A stretch of 64,000 nucleotides of DNA from Squalus acanthias (taxonomy: Eukaryota), in contig JASTWF010000033.1 of the NCBI GenBank assembly GCA_030390025.1, positions 2,978,001-3,042,000 of the forward strand. Direction: 5' to 3'. Both the position numbers and the translations under genes were made by a program. Positions 10,537 through 25,092 of this stretch are shown here, piece by piece. Within the stretch, counting starts at the first letter, position 1, and every line of letters starts with the position of its first letter. Under the pieces are notes generated by a model that was not told the DNA's origin, ran no database searches, and was given only the letters and a program-made list of their open reading frames with translations.

Positions 10537-12163
10537 TTCATAGAAGCATAGAAAATAGGAGCAGGAGTAGGCCATTCGGCCGCTCGTGCCTGCTCCGCCA
10601 TTTAATGAGATCATGGCTGATCATCCAAATTCAATACCCTGTCCCTGCTTTCTCCCCATATCCCTTGATTCCTTTAGCCTTAAGAAATATATCGAGCTCC
10701 TTCTTGAATATATTTAATGAATTGACTTCTACTACCTTCTGTGGTAGAGAATTCCACAGGTTCACCACTCTCTGGAGGAAGAAATTCCTCCTCATCTCAG
10801 TCCTAAATGGCTTACCCCTTATCCAGAGTCTGTGACCTCTGGTTCTGGACTCCCCCGCCATCGGGAACATCCATTCTTGCATCTAGACTGTCTAGTCCTG
10901 TTAGAATGTTATAAGTTTCAATGAGATCCCCTCTCATTCTCTAAACTCTAGCTAATATAAGCCTAATCGACCCAATCTCTCCTCATATGTCATTCCTGCC
11001 AACCCAGGTATCAGTCTGGTAAATCCTCGCTGCTCTCCCTCCATGGCAAGAACATACTTCCTCAGATAAGGCGACCAAAACTGCACACAATACTCAAGGT
11101 ATGGTCTCACCAAGGCCCTGTACAACTGCAGCAAGACATCCTTGTTCCTGTACTCGAATCGTCTCGCTATGAAGGCCAACATATCATTTGCCTTCTTAAC
11201 CGCCTGCTGCACCTGCATGCTTACCTTCAGCGACTGGTGCACAAGGACTCCCAGGTCTCGTTGCACTTCCCCTTTTCCCAATCTATTGCCGTTCAGATAA
11301 TAATCTGCCTTCCTGTTTTTGCCACTGAAGTGGATAACCTCGCATTTATCCACATTTTACTGCATTTGCCATGCATCTGCCCAATCACCAAACCAGTCCA
11401 AATCATACTGGAGTTTCTCTGCATCCTCCTCAAAGCACACACACCCACCCAGCTTTATGTCGTCTACGAACTTGGAGATATTACAACTAGTTCCCTCGTC
11501 TAGATCATTTGTATATGTTGTGAATAGCTGGGGTCCTAGCACCGATCCCTGTGGTACCCCACTAGTCACTGCCTGCCACTCGGAAAAAGACCCGTTTATT
11601 CCAACTCTTTGCTTCCTGTCTGCCAATCAGTTTTCGATCCAAGGCAGTACCTTACCCCCAATCCCATTTGCTTTAAATTTGCTTGCTAATCTCTTATGCG
11701 GGACCTTATCGAAATCCTTCTTAAATTCAAAATACACCACATCCACTGGTTCTCCCTTATCTATTCTACCAGTTACATCCTCAAAAAATTTCAGTAGATT
11801 AGTCAAGCATGATTTACCTTTTGTAAATTCATGTTGAATTTGTCCTTTCCTGTCACTGTTTTCCAAGTGCTCTGCTATTACATCTTTTATAATGGACTCT
11901 AGCTTTTTTCCCACTACCCATGTCAGACTTACCGGTCCATAATTCCCCATTTTTTCTCGACCACCTTTTTTAAATAGTGTGGTTACATAAGCTTCTTCCA
12001 ATGCATGGGAACTGTTCCAGTGTCGATAGAATTTTGGAAGATGACCAGCAATGCATCTACTATTTCTTGGGCCACTTCCTTACATGCCCTAGGATGTAGA
12101 TTATCAGGCCCTGGGAATTTATCGGCCTTCAATCCCATCAATTTCCCTAACACCATTTCCCTA
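10537..12163 (-). mobile_element. CR1-type LINE 3' portion, cut by the ERV-A LTR
   Basis: RT peptides SGVPQGSVLGPQLF and LEYCVQFWSPY; 3' tail 'catagaagcatagaaaataggagcaggagtaggcc'. Confidence 0.9.
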
Positions 12164-13196
12164 TGTAAGTGGTTTTTGATCCTGGCCCAACAGCTAGACT
12201 GACGGTTCGAATCGCCCCCGCCTTACGATAGTTCTATACCCGGGAATTATTATTTAGAGTGTAAATGAAATAAGTCACGGACAGGAATGCTTCAGTGAAA
12301 AATCAAACTTATATTTATTTGGTCTAACATACACTGGCTAAAACGTGCACTACTAAACGAAATCACTGTCTCTGTGGAGAATAAAATCCAGGTTACAAAC
12401 AACATACATACAGTACAAAACTGGGGACTATGACAAGCAGTAATTCCCTTGTTGCTATGTTGGACTCTAATTCCAACACTAACAACGAATTACCCTTTCG
12501 CATAAGCACCTTGGCCTGGCTGAACCAAACAAAGCTCCCACCCTCGGAATAGCCCAAAAGCTTCACTTCTGAGAAACTCTGATCCCTCTGGTTACGGGCT
12601 TGGGTCACTCGAGATCATGCTTACCCCCACACGCAGTCCGTCTCGATCGCTCCGCTTAGCTGCTTCTTCCTCTGGTACTTCTTGTTAGGTAGATCTTGTT
12701 GGGGCGAGAGCGAGACAGAGAGAGAGAGAGATGGTGGGAAAGGATCTATCTTTATTGGAGTCTTGCTACCCCTATCATTCCCGTCAATCTTTAAAATCCT
12801 TTTGTTTCGAAGCACTCCAGTGCTGAATCAGTAATTGGTCATCCTCAGACCCATGTGTACTCCGTGTTTGTGCTAATGGCCCTAATTCTGGGACATAATT
12901 CGGTCTTTGTGTTGGGAAAAACTGGCTCCTCTCCGGCTGGCTAGGCCAGTGGGTTCATTGTTCTGCTTCTCTTCTGAGATGGAGGTGAGAAGTGCCTTTG
13001 CATATTCTGGATGACTGACAGTTCTTTCGTCACAGCCAACTGCCATGCATTCTCTGGAGTTTTAACAAACCACTTTTTCACATATCTGCCCAGGTGAGCC
13101 CATCACAGGGAAAATATCCTCAGAAAAATCCCATAATATCCACAAAATATTCTCGACTGAGTCCATTCTTCAAACAGAGACTTTGCGATCTCTTCA
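12164..13196 (-). repeat. ERV-A 3' LTR
   Basis: tgtaagtggtttttgatcc...ctttgcgatctcttca, collinear with 22297-23325. Confidence 0.92.
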
Positions 13197-13469
13197 GTCC
13201 CCCGTTTGATGTTTGTCTTTCCACAAAGCATCACTCGACGAGAGAGCAAAGGCCAAAGTCTCCCACAAGTGAAGCTGTTTCTCTGATTTTACATTTTAAA
13301 CCCCAGAACTGCACCCCTTACCGCGCGTCATAGTTCCGTTCTACCGAGTCAAAACATCAGCGAAACGGCTTCTGAACACATTCAAATGGCTGGGTTCCAA
13401 TTCCCACCGACAAACTTCAAGTCAAAATACAGAACATTAATAAGATCCACAGGAGGTTACCAAAAAGTC

Positions 13470-13660
13470 ACCGCGCACATCACACAGTACAGCATTGACA
13501 GGTGGTAACACATTACAATAACACAATCGTGCACATCACACAGTACAGCATTGACAGGTGGTAACACATTACAAAAATACAACCGCGCACATCACACAGT
13601 ACAGCATTGACAGGTGGTAACACATTACAAAAATACAACATCGCACATCACACAATACAG
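13470..13660. repeat. ~55-bp tandem repeat (3-4 copies) in the ERV-A 3' UTR
   Basis: 'gcacatcacacagtacagcattgacaggtggtaacacattacaa' is repeated. Confidence 0.85.
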
Positions 13661-13771
13661 AGTGTAAAGCTATAACCAGAATACTATACACTTGCTTACA
13701 GAACCTTGGTACATTACAAGTTTTTGCAGGGAGAAACCGTCATCAACATAAATCAATGACACCTTTCCGGA

Positions 13772-15063
13772 TCAATCTAACACCCCTTGCCACCGCGCTC
13801 GGAGCATCTGGCTCCATCGCCTGCTGCTGGTGTAGAACAAGTAGCTTACAAGGAATAATTGTATGATAACTAATGCATGGGAAGAGATGCGGATCCAGGG
13901 AGGAATCTCTATACTCAGACCGATGTCCCACCATGGTGGCGAGACAATCCCCTTCATCTCCTCCCCCACTTCTACTGTCTTTTGTTCCAAACTGTAAAAA
14001 TGTTTCTGGGAGAGTTCAACGGTCTTTATTAACTCAGTGAGATATTCTGGCAGAAAAGGAATTGTTCCAGGTCCCTCTTCTCTGCCTCCCGGACGCCACA
14101 CTGTCCCCAACATTCAGGTTATAAAGCTGTTCTTTCTCTACATTTCCATAGGCCAGTTCATAAAATATCCTGCAACATCGCTTTTAACAGAGCTTCATAA
14201 AGCTTCTCCGTCTTCCTTGGACACCACACAGGCAGATGGACTTCAGTCAGGTTCAGGATCACGGATGCCACGGCGTAGAGCACGTTCTGAAACAACACTT
14301 TGTCAGTAGGGATTAACACCAACCCATTCCCTGGACCCCTGGTGGTGGTGGGACACCCATCTACAGCCGTCTGTACCGTCGGTGCTCTGCGCGGGGGCTT
14401 CCTGGTATATGAGATGAGCTCTGTGGCGTTGATGGTGTTCGGGGGTATTGGGATCATACAGGAGTCCACACTCCGATCCCAACCGATCCCACCCCTGGCG
14501 TCCTGCCATCGCCTGCTAAACGCGATCGACACACCCGCTGGGCAGATCTTTTCCGACCCCCACATAAACACATAAATCCCTTCCTCGGATTCCCACCACT
14601 TATCCCAACACACATTCACTCCTCCCTGAGAACCCGTGATCGTCCGGTACGTATCATTACTTAGTCTTTCCCAGTCAGCTGTCTGGTCCCCTGTATCCGC
14701 ACTCAGTTACCTGATCCACCACCACCTTCCCAGTGGAATGTGTCCCCTACAGCTAACGCACACTCGTTTACCCTCTGTTACCCTAACCCGGGAGGTGGTA
14801 ACCCCTATTCTCGGGCATGGGATGGACGCTTCACCATTAGTGAAGTTGTCATGACTGGAATACTGGGTGGAATTCGACCCCAGCCATCCAGGCCATCTTC
14901 CCTCGTGGAGATAGACGCTCGCCCCATCCTTCGAGCCACCTCCAGTGGTCACAGTCGGTCCGTCTCCGCCGGTGCAGCCGAAGATAACCGATTCCTCGGT
15001 GTCACCCCTGTGACTCTCGCTGGCTTCAATCATGACGCTCAGGACTACCATGGCTGACTTCAT
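13772..15063 (-). pseudogene. env: ERV-A atypical env / type I membrane glycoprotein (signal, Ig-like domain, RQRR furin site, heptad, WW, TM), disrupted
   Basis: ATG at 15063 follows the splice acceptor TCTGTGTCTTTTCAG (~15098-15082). ORFs 15126-14707 and 14619-14158 are in the same frame. RQRR lies at 14087-14076, and the C-terminus is WWDIGL...HALVIIQLFLVSYLFY followed by a basic tail. Confidence 0.75.
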
Positions 15064-15263
15064 CTTGTTCTTAGGCGTTCTCTGAAAAGACACAGAATGC
15101 AACGTTGTCCTTGGGTGATGCCTCACCTTTCCAGACGCAGCTACACACGATTACATTTGGTATCCACAGCATACATGTAAATCCAAACTATACAGACAAG
15201 CTAAGGCAACAGACAGGAGATAAAGAAGTTATGTACAGCGCCACCCGTCTCCGGGTGGCCACA

Positions 15264-18200
15264 CTAGGTCTTCTCGACCCTGGGCCTATTCCGACTCCGG
15301 CTTCCTTCGTTCAATGGTGTGTAAGGAGGCGTCCACAGAACCCTCGGCCGTGGGATCCTGGCACTCCCACTCACTCCTGCCTCCACAGGCGGAACGACTG
15401 GTCGCTCTGTGGGCTCCTCACTGTCCCAGATTATGGGCTGGAGACCCACACCTGTAGCGCAGCTCACTACTCCCTGCTGTTTCCTCCTCTTATCAGCTCT
15501 TTCCCCAGGGTTGAAAAGCTTGCACTGATTGATATGGAAGCACTTAGTGCGTCGAGGCATTTTGATCGCATATACCATCAGACTTGCCCTATCCACGATA
15601 CTGTACGGTCCCATGTATAGCGGTTCAAAAGTCCCTACCCTGGCGAAGTTTCTAACCATTACTTGATCTCTGATCTTGCACTCGTGGTGCCTCTGAGTCT
15701 CAAGCAATAAACGATTTCTACGATGTTGCTTCCCAATGTTACTGGCAGCCTGCCAATGGGTCTGTCTGAGATGCTCAAACAAATTCTTAACAAACCTGTC
15801 CCGGTTCACCTCTCTCAACTGACCTTCCGTGAGAACCGGGGCCAATACATGGCTGGGCGTTCTCATGACCCTGCCAGTCACGAGGTCATGCGGGGAATAC
15901 CCTGTGCTTCTAGACGGGCTGGCTCGGACCCCCATCAGAACTAACGACAAGACCTCCGCCCATTTTCTAGGCGAGTCTCCCGTCTCCTCCCGTAACCTTT
16001 CCTTGATGGTCCTATTCATCCGCTCCACAATCCCCGATGACTGCGGGTTGTGTGCGACGTGTCATTTACCCTCTACACCTAGCATCTTCAGAGTCGCCTG
16101 CATGACTGTCCCTGTGAAGTGACTCCCCTGATCGGACTCCACATACCGTGGTAGCCGAGAGAACACTTCTCTCACTAGAATCCTTGCGGTCCACAAAGCT
16201 GTGGCTGTTCGGCATGGGAAGGCTTCTACCCATTGAGAGAACACATCCACCAGGACCAGGCAGTACTTGTAACCCCCCTGTGCGGTGGGCAGCGGTCCGA
16301 TATAATCGACCTGTATGGACTGCCATGGTCCCTCCACTCTCCTAGTATGTCCCATGGATACGTTCCTTTTTTGAGGGTCAAGGTTGTTTGCAGCACAGAC
16401 CAAGCAATCCGCGCAGAAGTGGCAGACCTCCTCCCTCAGTTTCGGCCACCACCCTGCCTGTTCCACCCGTTGCCAGGAGGTCACCGGCCCCGCTGCCCCG
16501 CTCCTGGACCCTCGTGGGCCAACTGAAGGAATTCTCTCCGGTGCTGCTGCGGAACTGCCCACTGTTCCCCTCTGAAAACCATCCCTTCCTTTAGAGTCAT
16601 AGAGTCATAGAGTTATACAGTTCAGAAAGAGGCCCTTCGGCCCCTCGTGTCCGCGCCGGCCTTCAAGCCCTGTCTATTCTAATCCCATTTTCCAGCACTT
16701 GGTCCGTAGCCTTGTATGCTATGGCGTTTCAAGTGCTCATCTAAATGCTTCTTGAATGTTGTGAGGGTTCCTGCCTCTACCACCCTTTCAGGCAGTGAGT
16801 CCAGATTCCAACCACCCTCTGGGTGAAAAAGTTTTTCCTCAACCCATCTAAACCTCCTGCCCCTTACCTTGAAGCTATGCCCCCTCGTTATTGACCCCTC
16901 TAATAAGGGGAAAAGTTCCTTTCTATCTACCCTATCTATGCCCCTCATAATTTTGTACACCTCAATCAGGTTCCCGCTCAGCCTTCTCTGCTCTAAGGAA
17001 AACAACCCCAGCCTGTCCAGTCTCTCTTCATAGCTGAAGCGCTGCAGCCCAGTTAACATCCTGGTTAAACTCCTCTGCACCCTCTCCAATGCAATCACAT
17101 CCTTCCTATAGTGTGGCACCCAGAACTGCACACAGTATTCCAGCTATGGCCTAACTCGCGGTTTGTACAGCTCCATCATAACCTCCCTGCTCTTATATTC
17201 TATGCCTCGGCTAATGTAGGCAAGTTTCCCATATGCCTTTTTAACCACCTTATCTACCTGTCCTGCTGCCTTCAGGGATCTATGTACATGCTCACCAAGG
17301 TCCCTCTGATCCTCTGTCCTTCCTAGGGTCCTACCGTTCATTATGTATTCCCTTACCTTGTTAGTCCTCCCAAAATGCATTACCTCACACTTTTCAGGGT
17401 TAAATTCCATTTGGCACTGTTCTGCCCATCTAACCATCCCGTCTATATCGTCCTGTAGCCTGAGGCTTCCCTCCTCGCTATTTACCACCACACCAATTTT
17501 CGTGTCATCTGCGAACTTACTGATCATACCTCCTACATTCATATCTAAATCATTAATGTACACTACAAACAGCAAAGGACCCAGCACCGATCCCAGTGGT
17601 ACACTATTGGACACAGGCTTCCAGTCACAAAAACAACCTTCAACCATCACCCTCTGCCTCCTGCCACTAAGCCAATTTTGGATCCAATGTGCCAAGTTGC
17701 ACTGGATCCCATGGGCTTTTACCTTCTTGACCAGTCTCCCATGCGGGACTTTGTCAAAAGCCTTACTGAAGTCCATTAGACCACATCAACTGCACTACCC
17801 TCATCCATACACCTAGTCACCCGCTCGAAAAATTCAATCAAATTGGTTGGACATGATCTCCCCCTGACAAAGCCATGATGACTATACCTGATTAATCCTT
17901 GCCTCTCCAAGTGGAGACTAATTCTGTCACTCAGAATTTTTTCCAATAATTTCCCTACCACTGATGTCAGGCTCACTGGCCTGTAATTCCATGGTTTATC
18001 CCTACTACCCTTCTTTAATAATGGTACTACGTATTTAGCGAGATACCTGCCACTCCGTATAGACGCTCTACCTTATCTCCCTTAGCCAGCGTCTCCAGAA
18101 CAGTCTTTAGGACGGGATCTCGTGCCTGGACCATGTTTAGGTCCGGTGCCAATGCTACCCCTGCACTCGCTTAGGCCCCACCTCTGTCTCTGATCGCTGC

Positions 18201-20588
18201 TACCAGAATCGACCCATATGGATCCCAAAACGTGCCCGTTCGAGCACCCTCTTTGGACATCACGTTGGCCTGCTGATTGCCCTCCGCACGGGGTTCCGCC
18301 TTTGAATGGGCCATTACGTTGTGGATATAGAAATCCCCCTGGGTTCCTATCGATGTTATGATCTGTTGCAACAATGGCTTTGTTGCTAGGGGTTTCCCGT
18401 TTGCAGATGTGAACCCGCGACGAGACCAAATGGCTAAATATTCTGCACACGAATTGCAAGTGAACATGGTGTCCGAGCAAATAGTATAGGGCGTAGGGTA
18501 TACTTCGGGGTGAGTAACCACATACAGCACCGCCGACAGTTCAGCGTGCTGGGCGCTCATGGTGCTCAGGAGTTTAATGGCCTTGGCAATGCCTACCTTT
18601 GGGTCCAAAATTTTCGCATCCAGTGAGTTGCTCCCCTGCCACCACTGTACTGGACCCTTCGACATGGATCCCAGCCCGAAACCCTATGTCTACGTCCCAT
18701 ACCCATTCAACAGAACATTTGTGGGCCACCCCTGGTTAGATCAAATTTGCGGGGAGCTTAGGCTCACAGAGGCCTTTCACACTCAAATTCGTCTGAGAGA
18801 GCAATAAAGTCCAGCGAGCAATGCGTGCACTGCTCACCGTGCCGTCTTTTATCCTCCCATCCAGAAGCATCTGAGTGAGCGTATGATGGGTTAAGAGAGA
18901 TAACGGGGACGCTCCCGTGAAGATTTGTGATCTCCTCACGGCCCAATGTGTGGCAAGCCGGTGCCTCTCACAATTGGAGTACCCCCTCTCTACATCTGTG
19001 AGGATTCTTGATGAGTATACCACAGGACTCAGCTTGCCATGCCGCTCCTGGAGCAGCACTGCACTCAAACTCTCCCCTGTGGCAGCTACCTCCAAAAATA
19101 ACTCCTTTCCCCCATCAACGCTCCTAAAGCCGATGTGGTCTGCAGATCTCTCTACAGACGACTAAAAGCTGCCCTGCAGTCATCCCCACTCCCTTGTGAA
19201 GTTGCCGGAGTAGAGGAGCTGCCGTAGCGGCATAGTCCTCTTCGAAATCCCTGCAATACCCTGTGAGTCACAGGAAGGATCTTACCTCCGTTATCGTGGT
19301 CAGGGCAGGTAGCTCCTGTACCGCCTTCCTTTTCGCCTCATCGATGGCCCTCTCCCCAGCACGTATGGTCAGCCTGAGGAATTTTACGTCCTGCTGGCCG
19401 ATCTGTGCTTTCTTGGGATTAACCTTGAACCCAGCTTCCTTTAACAGACTCAGCAGCTCAGCCAGCAGCGGGCCATGCAACTCCCCCTCGTTGGAGAACA
19501 AAAGCAGATCGTCCACGTACTGTACAAGCCGCTGCGGTCTGCTGAACCCTTTTAAACAGTTGGCCTTATATTAGTGGAAAATAGAAGGGCTGTTATGAAA
19601 CCCTTGGGGAAGGCAGATCCATGTGTACTGCTGACCCTTGAAAGTGAATGCGAATTTATAATGGTCCTCCCTTTTGAGAGGGACAGACCAGAATCCGTTC
19701 GAAATGTTCAGCACCGTGAATGTTTTCGCGGATGCCGGGATACTCCCGATCAGGTCGGCTACGGCTGCGACGGTGGGGGCACAGGCTGGGATGTTCTTTA
19801 AGAACCCGATAGTCCACAGTGGCTCTCCACGAATTGTCCGGTTTCCTAACAGGCCAAATCGGAGAGTTCACATGGGTCGCTATGGGTCTCAACACACCCT
19901 GCTCAACCAGTGATCCCAATGCCATCTCTAAATTCGCCTCTACCTCTCTGGGGAAGTTGTACTGTTTCTGTGGTTGGGCCATGGGGTCTCCTTCTACTCT
20001 GACCTCCACCCCTATTACCCTCCCACAGTCGTGCTTGTGTGTAGCGAATGCCGCAAGGTTGGCTCGCACATCCGCTATGTACTCCACCGGGGTAGAAGTG
20101 ACCAAAAGTTCCAGGTCATAACTACCCTTGGGCTTCATCGTACACACGGTTCCCTTGCCTTGCTTCCCTGGTATAACTACCACCTCCGTATCCTTTCCCG
20201 TGCACACTGCCCCCCAAAGACAGTGATTCCGGAAATCCACCAATATCTTGTGGGCCAGTATGAAGTCTGCCCCCAAAATGCCTATTCCCTCCCGCTCCCA
20301 CCGCATCAGGACACATTTCAACTCCGTATGGAGTGTACCCAGATCGATGGCTAGTGGGATGGAGAAAGGCCCAGCCTGTTCGTTCCCGGTGAAACCTACT
20401 AAGTAATATGGGACCCCGCTCGATAGAGGTGCTGTGGTCGGGTTATCCGCATAGAAAACGGTGCTTGAAGCTCCAGTGTCCAGCAGATAGGTCCCTTGCA
20501 CCTTGTCCACCCCCATCTTCACGCACGGTCTCTTCCAAGCATCATAACTTAGTGGGCACAGGTAAACTGGCTGAGAAGCTCCTAGTCA
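15264..20588 (-). pseudogene. pol: ERV-A pro-pol (PR, RT, tether, RNase H, integrase), frameshifted and split by a CR1
   Basis: LLDTGAS; SPIWPVRKPDNSWRATVDYR; QYVDDLLL; AVLLQERHGKLSPVVYSSR; SAQHAELSAV...ICSD...AHSK...GNQQA; CxxC, IQVDYIGP, SDQGSHF, ERMNRTIK and GPY motifs. Confidence 0.92.
16592..18028 (-). mobile_element. 5'-truncated CR1 inserted in ERV-A pol between RNase H and integrase
   Basis: [19 protein letters not shown] and QFWVPHY peptides; 'tagagtcatagagtcatagag' 3' tail. Confidence 0.92.
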
Positions 20589-22230
20589 TGGGTCGGGATT
20601 GTTCGGGGCGGATGGGAGTACGCTGCCCGCTGCTGCATCCACCCTACCCTGCCGGAAAGACTGCGCGGAGAGCAGCCACTAATACCGCGAACGGATCAGT
20701 GCTGCTTCCTGCCACAGCTGCAGCTTTCTGCACTGGCGCTGGAGGATCCCCTTTCCCGCTCCTTTTGTCAGAGACTGGGCAGTCTTTCCTCCAGTGCCCT
20801 TTACTCCCGCACCCATAACAACCCTGCTTCTTCTCTGAGCTACCCCCTCCCTGGCGCCACTCTCTTCTAACTTTGCCTCCACTAGGCTTTAACTCGTGTA
20901 CTCTGCCCTTTGGTTTGTCATCCTCACCCCTACCATTCTTCAAAGAGAGAGTTAACTGCCGGATCACACTCTCTTCTGTGGTCTGGGGATCCCTGGAATC
21001 GAACCACCCCTCTGCTTTGGCCTTGATCCTGGGCAGGCTGTTCGCCAACAGGGTCCTCAGCCAATGAGCCCTAGGCTCCCCCTGCAGCTGCGCCCGGTCG
21101 GGCACCCCCGCACAGGCACTCCGGTAGACGGGCCAAAGCCTGTCCGCGAAAGCCTGCGGTGCCTCCCCAGCTGACTGCAGTGTCCTTTCCACTCAGGAGA
21201 AGGGACTTTCATCACTGAGGCCCATAGCCTCTAGGATGTCATCCTTAATCCCCTCTAACGTCCCTGCCCCCTCTTGCTACCCGCTGAGAGCGACTGGTAC
21301 AACCTACTATCCAGGGAAAATAAAAGTAATTTGTCTGTCTCAGCTTCGTTACAATTATTGATCCCCCCACACCTGCTCCACATCCGTAAAATGGACAAAT
21401 GGGTCTCCTGTGCTGTTCAGTTTGGTCAGGTTAGAGACCATTGCCCGCAGCTGGGGGGTCGTATACGGGACCACGAAGTCACTCTGCAGTGCTCCTTGCT
21501 CTTGACCGTCTACGGGCGCACCGTATTTCCGCTGCCGGACAGGGCACATGGGTCCTGGTACCGGCACTTCGGGCGGTGGTCGAGCAGCCTCCTCTGCCTC
21601 ACAGTCCTCCTTATCTCCCTGCTGCTCTTCCTCATCTACCCGGGCCATTCCCGGAGCTACCAAGCAGACTATCCCTTTGGCCTTAGATACAGCATCGGTC
21701 AAATTCTAGATCTGCTCTTGGCCAGGACCATGATTACCCGTATCAAACCATCCAGTGCTGGAGACTCTGTATGCCACTTGAATATCCTTCAACTGCTCTC
21801 CCAGCACTTTTACCTCACTCGACAAGCGAGCGTTCTCCTCCCTAACATTCCTCTCGTTCCCCTTTGCCTCAGTTACCTGGCATTGCAGGAACACTTTATG
21901 GTTACAGAAGGTTTTCTCCTGGCTTATTTTTCCCTGCTTCTCAATGCTTGGCTCCGTGCAAAACCAACTCCCTACTACAGCCCTTGCGTCTGACTTTGCC
22001 TCGGACTCCCTGAGCTCTGCCTCTAACCTCGCAACCTGCTTATCTAGCAGTTGGACTCGTCTTTGTAGACAGACGAGCCATATCGCATTTTCAATGCTGC
22101 GCCTATGGTCCTGGCCCTCCGTCCATTCTGCCGCTGCCTCCACGCAACAAGCCCAGCGCCCATTTCTTAGTGACGTTAACCTTCTTAAACACATATGAAG
22201 AAATCCTTTCCTCCATTTGGGATCTTTCAC
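20586..22230 (-). pseudogene. gag: ERV-A gag with CCHC zinc knuckle and PSAP motif
   Basis: CYGCGSKGHWRKDC, a coiled-coil N-terminal region, and LPSAPNNPDP before TGA at 20588-20586. Confidence 0.85.
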
Positions 22231-22296
22231 CAGAAGCGCTGTCCATCACTGATTTACACACCTGTAACCCTTGTCCTGCCCGCAGTCGCCAAGAGA

Positions 22297-23325
22297 TGTA
22301 AGTGGTTTTTGATCCTAGCCCAATTGCTAGATAGACGGTTCGAATCGCCCCTGCCTTACGAAAGTTCTATACCCGGGAATAATTATTCAGAGTGTAAATG
22401 AAATAAGTCATGGACAGGAATGCTTCAGCGAAAAATCAAACTTATATTTATTTGCTCTAACATACACTGGCTAAAACGTGCACTACTAAACGAAATCACT
22501 GTCTCTGTGGAGAATAAAATCCAGGTTACAAACAACAAACATACAGTACAAACTGGGGACTATAAAATGCAATATTTCCCGTGTTGCTATGGTGGACTCC
22601 AATTCCACCCCTACCAACGAATTACCCAGTCGCATAAGCCCCTTCGCTTGGCTGAACCAAAGGAAGCTCCCACCCTCGGAATAGCCAAAAAGCTTCACTT
22701 CTGAGAAAAACTCTGAGCCTCTGGTTACCGGCTTGGGACACTCTAGACCATGCTTACCCCCACACACAGTCCGTCTCGATCGCTCCGCTTAGCTGCTTCT
22801 TCCTCTGGTCTTAATGTTAGGTCAATCTTGGTGCAGCGAGAGCGAGAGAGAGAGAGAGATGGTGGGAAAGTATCTATCTTTATAGGAGTCTTGCTACCCC
22901 TATCTTTCCCGCCAATCTTTAAAATCCTTTTGTTTCGAAACACTCCGGTGCTGAATCTTTGATGGGTCATCCTCAAACCCATGTGTACTCCGTGATTGGA
23001 ACAATGGTCCTCAGTCTGGGATATATTTCGGTCTTTCTGTTGGGCAAAACTGGCTCCTCTCCGGCTGGCTAGGCCATTGGGTTCATTGTTCTGCTTCTTT
23101 TCTCAGATGGAGGTGAGAAGGGATTTTGAATATTCAGGATGACTGACAGTTATTGTGTCACACCCAACTGCCATGTGTTCTCTGGAGTTTTAACAAACCA
23201 TTTTTTCACATAGCAACACAGGGTGATAACATCAAAGGGAAAATACCCTCAGAAAAATCCCATAAAGTCCACAAAATATTCTCGACTGAGTCCATTCTTC
23301 AAGCAGAGACTTTGCGATCTCTCCA
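22297..23325 (-). repeat. ERV-A 5' LTR
   Basis: Collinear with 12164-13196 and followed on the minus strand by a PBS-like sequence. Confidence 0.92.
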
Positions 23326-25092
23326 GATATTATGTGGATTTGGGAGCAGCTGCCGATATTGGGTGGGATGGGGAGGAGCTGAGGATATTAGGTGGGGTGG
23401 GGTGGTGCAGAGTATATTAGTTCAGGTGGGGATGAGCTGAGGATATTAGGTCAGGTGGGGATGAGCTGAGGATATTAGGTGGGCTGCGGGGGAGCTGAGG
23501 ATATTAGGTGGGGTGGGGAGGGAGCTGAGGATATTAGGTGGGGAGGGTGGAGCTGAGGATATTAGGTGGGGTGGGGAGGGAGCTGAGGATATTAGGTGGG
23601 GTGGGGTGGAGCTGAGGATATTAGGTGGGGTGGGGTGGACTGACGATATTAGATGGGGTGGGGAGGAGCTCATGATAATATGTGGGGTGGGGTGGAGCTG
23701 AGGATATTAGGTGGGGTGGGGGAGGAGCTGAGGATATTAGGTGAGGTGGGGAGGAGCTGAGGATATTAGGTGGGGTGGGGAGGAGCTAAGAATATTAGGT
23801 GGGGAGGGGAGGAGCTGAGGATATTAGGTGGGGTGGGGTGGAGCTGAGGATATTAGGTGAGGTGAGGAGGAGCTGAGGATATTAGGTGAATTGGGGAGGG
23901 ACTGAGGATATTAGGTGGGGTGGGGAGGAGCTGAGGATTTTAGGTGGGGTAGAGATGAGCCGAGGATATTTGGTGGGTGGGGAGGAGCTGAGGATTTTAG
24001 GTCGGGTGGGGAGGAGCTGAGAATATTAGGTGGGGTTGGGAGGAGCTGAGGATGTTAGGTGGGGTGGGGAGGAGCTGAGAATTTTAGGTCGGGTGGGGAG
24101 GAGCAGAGGATATTAGGTGGGGTGGGGAGGAGCTGAGGATATTAGGTGGGGTGGGGAGGAGCTGAGGATATTAGGTGGGGTGGGGAGGAGCTGAGGATAT
24201 TAGGTGTGGTGGGGAGGAGCTGAGGATATTAGGTGGGGTGAGGGAGGAGCTGAGGATATAAGGTTGGGTGGGGAGGAGCTGAGGATATTAGGTGGGGTGG
24301 GGAGGAGCTGAGGATATTAGGTGGGGTGGGGGAGGAGCTGAGGATATTAGGTGTGGTGGGGAGGAGCTGAGGATATTAGGTGGGGTGGGGAGGAGCTGAG
24401 GATATTAGGTGGGGTGGGGAGGAGCTGAGGATATTAGGTGAGGTGGGGAGGAGCTGAGAATATTAGGTGTGGTGGGGAGGAGCTGAGGATATTAGGTGGG
24501 GTGTGGAGGAGCTGAGGATATTAGGTGAGGTGGGGAGGAGCTGAGGATATTAGGTGGGGTAGGGAGGAGCTGAGGATATTAGCTGTGGTGGGGAGGAGCT
24601 GAGGATATTAGCTGGGGTCGGGAGGAGCTGAGGATATTAGGTGAGGTGGGAGGAGCTGAGGATATTATGTGGGGTGGGGTGGAGCTGAGGATATTAGGTG
24701 GGGTGGGGAGGAGCTGAGGGTATTCGGTGGGGTGGGTAGGAGCTGAGTATATTTGATGGGGTGGGGAGGAGCTGAGGATATTAGGTGGGGTGCGGAGGAG
24801 TTGAGGATATTCGGTGGGGTGCGGAGGAGCTGAGGATATTTGGTGGGGTGGGGAGGAGCTGAGGATATTAGGTGTGGTGGGGGAGGAGCTGAGGATATTA
24901 GGTGGGCTGGGGAGGAGCTGAGGATATTCGATGGGGTGTGGAGGAGCTGAGGATATCAGGTGGGGTGGGGAGGAGCTGAGGATATTCGGTGGGGTGGGGA
25001 GGAGCTGATGATATTAGGTGGGGTGGGGAGGAGCTGAGTATATTAGATGGGGTGAGGAGGAGCTGAGGATATTTGGTGGGGTGAGGAGGAGT
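23326..25092. repeat. 29-bp G-rich minisatellite (gaggagctgaggatattaggtggggtggg)
   Basis: Clear ~29-bp periodicity over ~1.75 kb. Confidence 0.95.

Follow-up and report, generated by a model that had tools for sequence, protein, structure and literature searches.

An endogenous retroviral env remnant in Squalus acanthias and its family of envelopes with a predicted F-type fusion module and a probable Ig-like N-terminal domain

The stretch of DNA analysed here, called the window throughout, comprises 64,000 nucleotides (nt) of Squalus acanthias (GenBank assembly GCA_030390025.1, contig JASTWF010000033.1, positions 2,978,001 to 3,042,000 of the forward strand). It contains a provirus flanked by long terminal repeats (LTRs) that lies on the minus strand between about 23325 and 12164, and all features of the provirus given below are on that strand. 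Its env gene (15063-13772) is a remnant and belongs to a single copy of an endogenous retrovirus (ERV) family that is very abundant in an elasmobranch-type genome. We consider it probable that the complete relatives of this gene join an antibody-like outer domain and a fusion machine of the F type, that of the paramyxo- and pneumovirus fusion protein F, in one retroviral envelope protein (Env), of which the window copy is a broken remnant. A first-pass annotation, made from the letters of the window, had read the same region as a retroviral envelope carrying a captured immunoglobulin (Ig)-like domain and an internally deleted F-like fusogen, possibly of the lokiretrovirus type. The retroviral part of that proposal is borne out by the setting of the gene, which includes LTRs, a gag remnant with a CCHC zinc knuckle and a pro-pol remnant; its other parts are taken up below with the evidence that bears on them.

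An F-type Env is an uncommon but already published design among retroviruses. It has been reported from sequence for lokiretroviruses (2020; available text of PMC7947760) and from structure for foamy viruses (2024; available text of PMC11468914). The family described here extends the design to cartilaginous fish, in an element that has an orthoretrovirus-like Gag and a pol whose nearest counterparts among solved enzymes are those of foamy and gammaretroviruses. The new feature of the family would be the Ig-like domain located at the N-terminus of the same chain as the F-type fusogen. No F-type Env with an N-terminal Ig-like domain was found in the literature searched, the coverage of which left out a study of cartilaginous-fish endogenous foamy viruses (J Virol 2023).

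The env remnant, its complete siblings and the shared deletion

The anatomy of the complete Env was read from sibling loci as they stand, rather than from a repaired window gene or a consensus. Several copies belonging to a sister subfamily keep the whole env frame open, over 784-788 residues from the ATG. In them the signal peptide is followed by about 65 residues that lead to the Ig-like stretch. Next in order are a Pro/Thr linker containing a sequon, a segment with Cys-Pro...GLVL..., the motif G-x-G-RQRR, a Gly/Ser/Thr-rich hydrophobic stretch and a long heptad region, followed by about 200 residues rich in cysteines and beta-strands, a second heptad region, PPWWDI, a transmembrane (TM) segment and a basic tail. 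The linear order typical of F proteins, namely F2, basic site, fusion peptide, heptad repeat A (HRA), beta domains, heptad repeat B (HRB) and TM, is thereby present in the siblings, as it is in distant relatives, and the window copy retains of it no more than the F2 part, the cleavage site, HRB and TM. The first-pass annotation had described the envelope as not being of the gamma type, and this description holds: the motifs CWLC and CX6CC are absent from all eight long env frames subjected to a pattern search, and the Pfam family TLV_coat has no match in the Env family. A TM subunit of the gamma type, named in that annotation as one of the observations that would speak against its reading, is not seen in the full-length copies.

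In the window, every peptide string quoted in the annotation was recovered from the minus-strand translation of 15063-13772. The gene begins with an ATG at 15063 and a signal-peptide-like segment of 19 residues, MKSAMVVLSVMI (15063-15007), which is followed by an N-terminal region (15006-14815) where the sibling model has a predicted local distance difference test score (pLDDT) below 50. An RGD triplet (15009-15001) and an NST triplet (14874-14866) are found there. The RGD triplet stands directly after the signal-like segment in all eight own-genome copies aligned and in none of the five sequences of other species with an aligned N-terminus. The Ig-like domain, of V/I-set-like character (14814-14518), is delimited by sub-threshold Pfam matches, a sibling model with its fold matches and a cysteine pattern. 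It comprises the strings RVCVSC (14766-14749), RWWWIR, which runs into a premature TAA stop at codon 119 (14709-14707), TYRTITG (14652-14632), VNVCWDKWW (14619-14593) and EEGIYVFMWG (14586-14557). In the last of these the expected second cysteine reads Phe (TTT, 14568-14566); both this substitution and the stop are as first annotated.

A Pro/Thr-rich linker (14517-14356) with a NAT sequon (14430-14422), matching the low-pLDDT start of the fusion-module model, leads to the F2-like segment (14355-14076). From comparison of the sibling model with F chains, this segment consists of a beta-hairpin (GLVLIPTDK...VILNL) and a helix and ends in the furin-like motif RQRR, found at 14087-14076 where it had been placed before. 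The frameshift noted earlier can be traced, by comparison with four sibling copies, to a single extra base at 14167 in this F2-like part. What had been described as an abrupt jump is an internal deletion, since the sequences abutting at 14062/14061 in the window lie 990, 993 and 1020 nt apart in three siblings. The junction (14062-14061) was placed by BLAST against these siblings; global pairwise MAFFT put the large deletion in the wrong place. The lost segment of about 990-1020 nt corresponds to the fusion peptide, HRA and the head formed by domains I/II. Past the junction follow an HRB-like heptad helix (14041-13946), the counterpart of helix 466-499 of the sibling model, and a last segment (13939-13772) with PPWWDI (13939-13922), a TM-like stretch (13897-13829), the basic tail and the stop at 13772. 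Because it combines a premature stop, a one-base frameshift and a deletion of about 1 kb, the window copy, to judge from its reading frame, is dead and has no function left.

The family is represented many times in the same genome. A 182-residue piece of the surface subunit (SU) gave 6882 first-look candidates in the 3.7-Gb assembly, and all 150 places that were scored match it at E <= 2.5e-79. These fall into two identity classes, 57 places at 87-100% and 93 at 65-68%, and thus into two subfamilies. Outside this genome, a word-indexed protein search found four proteins, from one sawshark and one skate, and an exhaustive search of representative proteins found 40 at E <= 0.001. Those checked for origin belong to the shark genera Mustelus, Chiloscyllium, Scyliorhinus and Pristiophorus and to the frog genera Pelodytes and Xenopus. 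In the distant ones, which are 20-30% identical, the alignment begins at about residue 210 and so covers the fusion module only; a word-indexed search with the family alignment returned nothing beyond elasmobranchs. Three proteins of Pristiophorus japonicus annotated as host products (P0004, ZFP2-like; P0005, cadherin-related 5-like; P0009, Niban 1-like) contain stretches 53-88% identical to Env and are probably chimeric gene models laid over ERV fragments. Matches of one family profile to zinc-finger proteins were discarded, as they were due to the presence of the chimeric model P0004 in the alignment. The skate member (P0003, Rhinoraja longicauda, 516 residues) also misses the globular head, with a different junction that keeps the frame.

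The deletion seen in the window is common to numerous copies. A 120-nt probe spanning the junction gave 187 candidates, and each of the 40 places scored, the window and 39 other loci, matches over 115-120 nt with 93-100% identity. Among the best 30 SU loci, the junction is present in 17, the probe halves are apart or only one is found in nine, and neither half is found in four. The loss of about 1 kb relative to siblings, which the first-pass annotation had proposed from the window, is accordingly found again at no fewer than 39 further loci; occurrence of one junction at so many places indicates that the deletion is older than these insertions and that an env-defective form has multiplied. 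This form could have been amplified with the help of Env supplied in trans by complete relatives or, alternatively, by intracellular retrotransposition. The shared deletion would then be one more case in which the loss of env goes together with amplification in the genome. In a star-like tree of the SU part of 30 loci (27 inner branches, of which 20 are drawn open), end branches have a median of 0.013, with 0.027 for the window, and deleted and undeleted copies are not separated, a point that counts against this account.

The reading frames of the deleted copies raise another prospect. Several of them are open from the ATG to a stop located directly past the junction, over 359-371 codons, and SU-only Env decoys are known in mammals. 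By this precedent, the host might have retained the deleted form for a secreted protein limited to SU, made of the signal peptide, the Ig-like and the F2-like parts, that blocks the receptor against related viruses. We regard this as highly improbable, for in the window copy that very frame is broken by a stop and a frameshift, and a multi-copy, star-like pattern is the one expected of a transposing parasite and not of a single host gene. Amplification of an env-defective element remains our preferred explanation. In part of the deleted copies the match to the junction probe covers 119 instead of 120 nt; in these a single continuous frame links the SU part with the HRB-TM part, and the open frames measure 443 codons.

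Predicted folds of the fusion module and of the N-terminal domain

The fusion module was modelled by AlphaFold2 from a natural 509-residue segment of the window's own subfamily with a 39-row alignment. The model has a mean pLDDT of 63.8 and displays a well-predicted beta-rich part at about residues 264-432, a 60-residue helix and a C-terminal helix. Foldseek against the PDB returned 231 matches at E <= 0.001, headed by F of human parainfluenza virus 3 (hPIV3; 1ztm_C, 3.4e-11), and every one of the matches listed is a paramyxo- or pneumovirus F. When VIA-align was applied to the Foldseek list, 209 of 983 chains reached Z >= 8 and all 50 entries shown were F proteins; the first was Langya virus F in its post-fusion form (8tvg_A), with a Z of 12.3, a root mean square deviation (rmsd) of 6.5 and 334 of 377 residues aligned. 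The strands at 46-69 and the helix at 81-103 of the model align with the N-terminal part of F chains. The segment GLVLIPTDKVLFQNVLYAVASVILNL had been a candidate membrane or fusion segment and was rejected as such, since model strands 46-69 identify it as the beta-hairpin that opens the F2-like part. Among the predicted viral structures of BFVD, the best matches are F-like glycoproteins of lispi- and arliviruses and of a fish filovirus-like virus, together with baculovirus F and paramyxovirus F0. Three retroviral Envs are encountered there as well, from walleye epidermal hyperplasia virus 1 at 3.5e-8, from feline foamy virus at 1.1e-4 and from walleye dermal sarcoma virus at 6.6e-4. On the predicted model of a sibling, these matches agree with the F-like class I fusogen suggested in the first-pass annotation, and a paramyxo-/pneumovirus F fold of the fusion module is supported for the complete relatives.

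Several results weigh against this assignment. In the model, 152 of the 509 residues have a pLDDT below 50, and the predicted template modelling score (pTM) of 0.48 denotes middling confidence. The Pfam family PF00523 has no match at E <= 10 in ten family proteins or segments, including the frog ones, none at E <= 1 in the family protein P0001 and none at E <= 0.1 in further members, and the family profile drew nothing but coiled-coil noise from PDB sequences. With no sequence method linking the module to F, the assignment rests on predicted structure; cleavage, trimer formation, receptor binding and fusion by this Env are themselves predictions. A search of the PDB with the fusion module as a single sequence likewise gave no match. 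A PF00523 search of the own genome was also without a match, its controls being equally silent.

The N-terminal domain was modelled from the natural N-terminal 196 residues of a sibling with a 14-row alignment. Seven or eight strands (68-163) are arranged in Ig order, like an Ig sandwich. Foldseek gave 435 matches at E <= 0.001, and those listed are chains of antibodies, of the shark variable new antigen receptor (VNAR) and of other Ig-superfamily members, with template modelling scores of 0.5-0.68 on the target and identities of 11-21%. In a VIA all-against-all comparison with 48,161 chains, 107 were found at Z >= 8, and the top 50 are almost all Ig-superfamily or antibody-complex entries (Z 8.6-9.5; rmsd 2.1-4.2 over 84-106 residues). 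At the sequence level, Pfam Ig_3 aligns over positions 2-74 of its 78 in three of eight members (E 0.0085-0.022), and a nine-row profile of the domain finds as its best PDB match the V domain of CRTAM, end to end, at E 0.16. The nearest ESM-Atlas clusters, taken as a lead only, are mostly Ig families (scores 0.84-0.87). The spacing Cys102...Trp115-116...Cys166, corresponding to the canonical Cys of strand B, Trp of strand C and, in a D/E-x-G-x-Y-x-C context, Cys of strand F, is invariant or nearly so in the alignments, with the B-strand Cys and the Trp run showing no variation. At the F-strand position, the GIYVF site at which the first-pass annotation had proposed to look for a cysteine in relatives, Cys is indeed present at 33 of 42 related loci; four, the window included, have Phe and five are unreadable by pattern. 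The N-terminal Ig-like domain suggested by that annotation thus receives moderate support from a low-confidence model, sub-threshold Pfam matches and a conserved Cys-Trp-Cys pattern, and we consider an Ig-like fold of this domain quite likely.

Other observations point the opposite way. The model has a mean pLDDT of 47.1, with no residue at 90 or above and values of 60-74 over residues 80-150 approximately, and AlphaFold, provided with a shallow 14-row alignment, may have echoed an Ig-like sequence pattern. In VIA, models that have no true relatives often attain a best Z of 7-8. The Ig_3 scores of 15.7-17 bits are well below the 30-bit cut-off, Ig_3 has no match in the skate protein P0003, and a profile-profile comparison of this clade with the distant relatives aligned the fusion module and no N-terminal domain. 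The resemblance to Ig could then be spurious, the domain being a different beta-sandwich, or having its own separate fold, with a Cys-Trp-Cys pattern by coincidence. In addition to the low confidence of the model and the fact that every sequence signal is sub-threshold, this possibility draws on ESM-Atlas scores that are all below 0.9 and on a PDB so rich in Ig domains that small sandwiches tend to match them. We nevertheless find it unlikely, as the weak signals of different methods converge on the same family, the alignments extend over the entire domain and keep the canonical residues in register, most of the leading VIA matches superpose some 90 residues with an rmsd of 2.1-3.1 Å, and the cysteine pair and the tryptophan are conserved across subfamilies and species.

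If the domain is indeed Ig-like, its origin has to be considered. Capture of Ig-domain genes is known in viruses, and this precedent, together with shark VNAR and antibody V domains among the Foldseek matches, would suit a recent capture from a host gene, for instance an immune receptor, in the service of immune mimicry. This scenario appears very unlikely in view of an identity to the Ig matches in Foldseek that is no higher than the 11-21% given above. Moreover, no host Ig protein is found at E <= 0.001 among either the four matches of the word-indexed search or the 40 of the exhaustive one. The domain occurs in both subfamilies, which are about 74% identical over it, and in the skate and sawshark sequences, and must therefore be older than the spread of the family. 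The N-terminal regions of distant relatives are also labelled Ig-like, in a UniRef name (P0016), or score weakly as such, with V-set at E 0.045 (P0033). The qualification of the domain as captured is consequently not retained, and we treat it as a fixed part of this Env.

On the reading that we favour, an Ig-like domain and an F-type fusogen in one chain, the complete Env would be a type I membrane glycoprotein, about 785 residues long, uniting two functions that paramyxoviruses split between proteins. The N-terminal Ig-like region would act as its receptor-binding part. By analogy with F, a furin-like protease would cleave the protein at RQRR, the Env would be held as a metastable trimer, and refolding into an HRA/HRB six-helix bundle would merge the membranes.

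Retrovirus class and likeness to known fusogens

Among solved enzymes, the reverse transcriptase (RT) of the element scores best with simian foamy virus protease-RT (86.9 bits), followed by murine leukaemia virus (MLV) and xenotropic MLV-related virus (XMRV) at about 76, prototype foamy virus at about 74 and Ty3 at 65.5. The integrase (IN) scores best with that of prototype foamy virus (95.5 bits) and next with Ty3 (76.1), and its translation contains a GPY motif. A GPY motif in IN fits the gamma, epsilon and spuma side of retroviruses, and a CCHC knuckle in Gag argues against a true spumavirus.

These scores also bear on the lokiretrovirus type evoked in the first-pass annotation. The lokiretrovirus Env is described in the available text of PMC7947760 as resembling paramyxo-/pneumovirus F and, like the present Env, combines a signal peptide, a basic site (there of the RXKR type), a fusion peptide, a coiled coil and a TM segment. 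Distant relatives of our Env are found in the frogs Xenopus tropicalis and Pelodytes ibericus, an X. tropicalis lokiretrovirus is listed in the supplement of PMC7947760, and IN and RT also score well with Ty3, as might be expected of a basal lineage. That we are dealing with a true lokiretrovirus, carrying the Env proper to that group, is nonetheless, in our view, quite unlikely. The same supplement gives no positive among three genomes screened under Orectolobiformes/Chondrichthyes, the main text of that paper names no cartilaginous fish, no shark lokiretrovirus is reported in it, and the word 'immunoglobulin' does not occur in that main text. The lokiretrovirus Env is detected by PF00523 at E 2.2e-7 (PMC7947760), whereas ours is not detected by it, and RT and IN are best matched by foamy virus and MLV enzymes among solved structures. 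Membership in the lokiretroviruses, as distinct from likeness of the fusogen, is not supported by these sequence comparisons.

The closest structural parallels are the F proteins of Paramyxoviridae and Pneumoviridae (PF00523; hPIV3 1ztm, Langya virus 8tvg, respiratory syncytial virus 3rki). The domain order is the same from F2 to TM and the predicted fold aligns over 290-340 residues, with no detectable sequence similarity. The present Env differs in being encoded by a retrovirus and in carrying about 235 additional N-terminal residues, including the Ig-like domain, on the same chain. In paramyxoviruses, the attachment protein is separate from F.

Foamy virus Env offers a second parallel: according to the available text of PMC11468914, it places F-like domains I-III and a receptor-binding domain (RBD) on one polypeptide, as the present Env is proposed to do. 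Foamy viruses also supply the best-scoring solved RT and IN, and the BFVD match to feline foamy virus Env suggests a related core fold. The differences are equally clear. Pfam Foamy_virus_ENV has no match here, and the candidate binding domain is the N-terminal Ig-like domain and not the foamy RBD. The N-terminus of our Env is a 19-residue, cleavable-looking signal-like segment, whereas foamy virus Env has a long leader peptide; a CCHC knuckle is present in the Gag of this element, and we know of none in foamy Gag. Neither the 50 PDB entries shown for VIA nor the Foldseek matches listed include a foamy virus Env, which is not evidence of its absence.

The Envs of the two walleye viruses, whose predicted structures match the fusion module with the E-values given above, are far longer (in BFVD, 1317 residues for epidermal hyperplasia virus 1 and 1159 for dermal sarcoma virus). 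In a review (PMC9967133, available text), the Env of such exogenous fish epsilonretroviruses is called distinct from the gamma type. Baculovirus F proteins such as Ld130, which give BFVD matches from 1.6e-11 to 4.6e-4, and the errantivirus/Ty3-gypsy elements likewise place an F-like fusogen on a DNA virus or a reverse-transcribing element (bioRxiv 10.1101/2023.10.26.564294, available text). Their hosts are invertebrates, and homologous intact elements are reported to be lacking in vertebrates in the same text, in which an Ig-like N-terminal domain is not described and the terms 'immunoglobulin' and 'Ig-like' do not occur. For the N-terminal domain itself, the V/I-set members of the Ig superfamily (CRTAM 4h5s, basigin, NCAM2 Ig1, shark VNAR) share the Cys-Trp-Cys spacing, the strand order and, with an rmsd of 2-3 Å, the predicted sandwich; the domain stays below every curated sequence threshold and is 8-23% identical to them.

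A wider reading, to which we give little credence, is that sharks, skates and frogs share an undescribed Env clade in which a fast-evolving Ig-like domain and an F-type fusogen make up a single-chain attachment-plus-fusion protein, and the deleted form of which may act as a secreted receptor decoy. Such a clade, if real, would add to the case for the F type rather than the gamma type as the older retroviral envelope. Its confirmation would bear on the ancestral type of retroviral envelope and on the frequency with which fusion modules have moved between retroviruses and negative-strand RNA viruses.

The provirus around env

The two LTRs form direct repeats of about 1 kb with a spacing of about 10,130 nt, and both have TG...CA ends; the 5' LTR (23325-22297) is 1029 nt long and the 3' LTR (13196-12164) 1033 nt. 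They are 90.2% identical (Kimura two-parameter distance 0.105), with transversions (64) outnumbering transitions (37), and no target-site duplication was found at the LTR ends as delimited here. The two LTRs may not be sisters, for example after recombination between copies that left a provirus recombinant of two of them, and for this reason no insertion date is given. A primer-binding-site-like 18-mer starting with TGG (22291-22274) begins 5 nt past the 5' LTR, and a polypurine-tract-like run (13220-13197) is located directly upstream of the 3' LTR, both being read from the sequence.

The gag remnant (22366-20644) is spread over several open reading frames and contains one CCHC zinc knuckle (Pfam zf-CCHC, E 3.3e-5). 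The pro-pol remnant (20585-15264), interrupted by stops and frameshifts, retains protease, RT with YVDD, RNase H and IN, as recognized by Pfam (RNase_H 1.1e-10, rve 1.3e-11, Integrase_H2C2 3.2e-6) and by PDB sequence matches to retroviral RT and IN. Within pol, open reading frames of a long interspersed nuclear element (LINE)-like RT mark a LINE-type RT fragment of 1449 nt (18042-16594) as a secondary insertion; in contigs of three public runs 16593 is joined straight to 18043 and these 1449 nt are absent. No Pfam match was found in the plus-strand frames beneath env, and no Rfam match in the window from 12000 to 23500.

The splice acceptor proposed by the first-pass annotation upstream of env is recognizable as a pyrimidine tract followed by CAG (15098-15083), 20 nt before the ATG. 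The match to the consensus stands, on sequence grounds only, and contigs of four public runs, the kind of which is uncertain, contain no junction that would connect the leader with the acceptor-like site at 15083. One low-depth contig (2.73) from one public run joins 15080, beside this site, to 19295 within RT, and may represent a deletion variant or a splice.

Three 56-nt tandem repeats, detected by direct-repeat analysis, lie between env and the 3' LTR (13660-13457). Their copy number varies among siblings and public contigs, in which joints omit 112 or 119 nt. The 5' LTR is adjoined by an array of 29-nt tandem repeats, with 53 copies reported, which extends from window position 23278 to about 25000, and on its opposite side the provirus is flanked by a LINE-type RT fragment (11627-12222).

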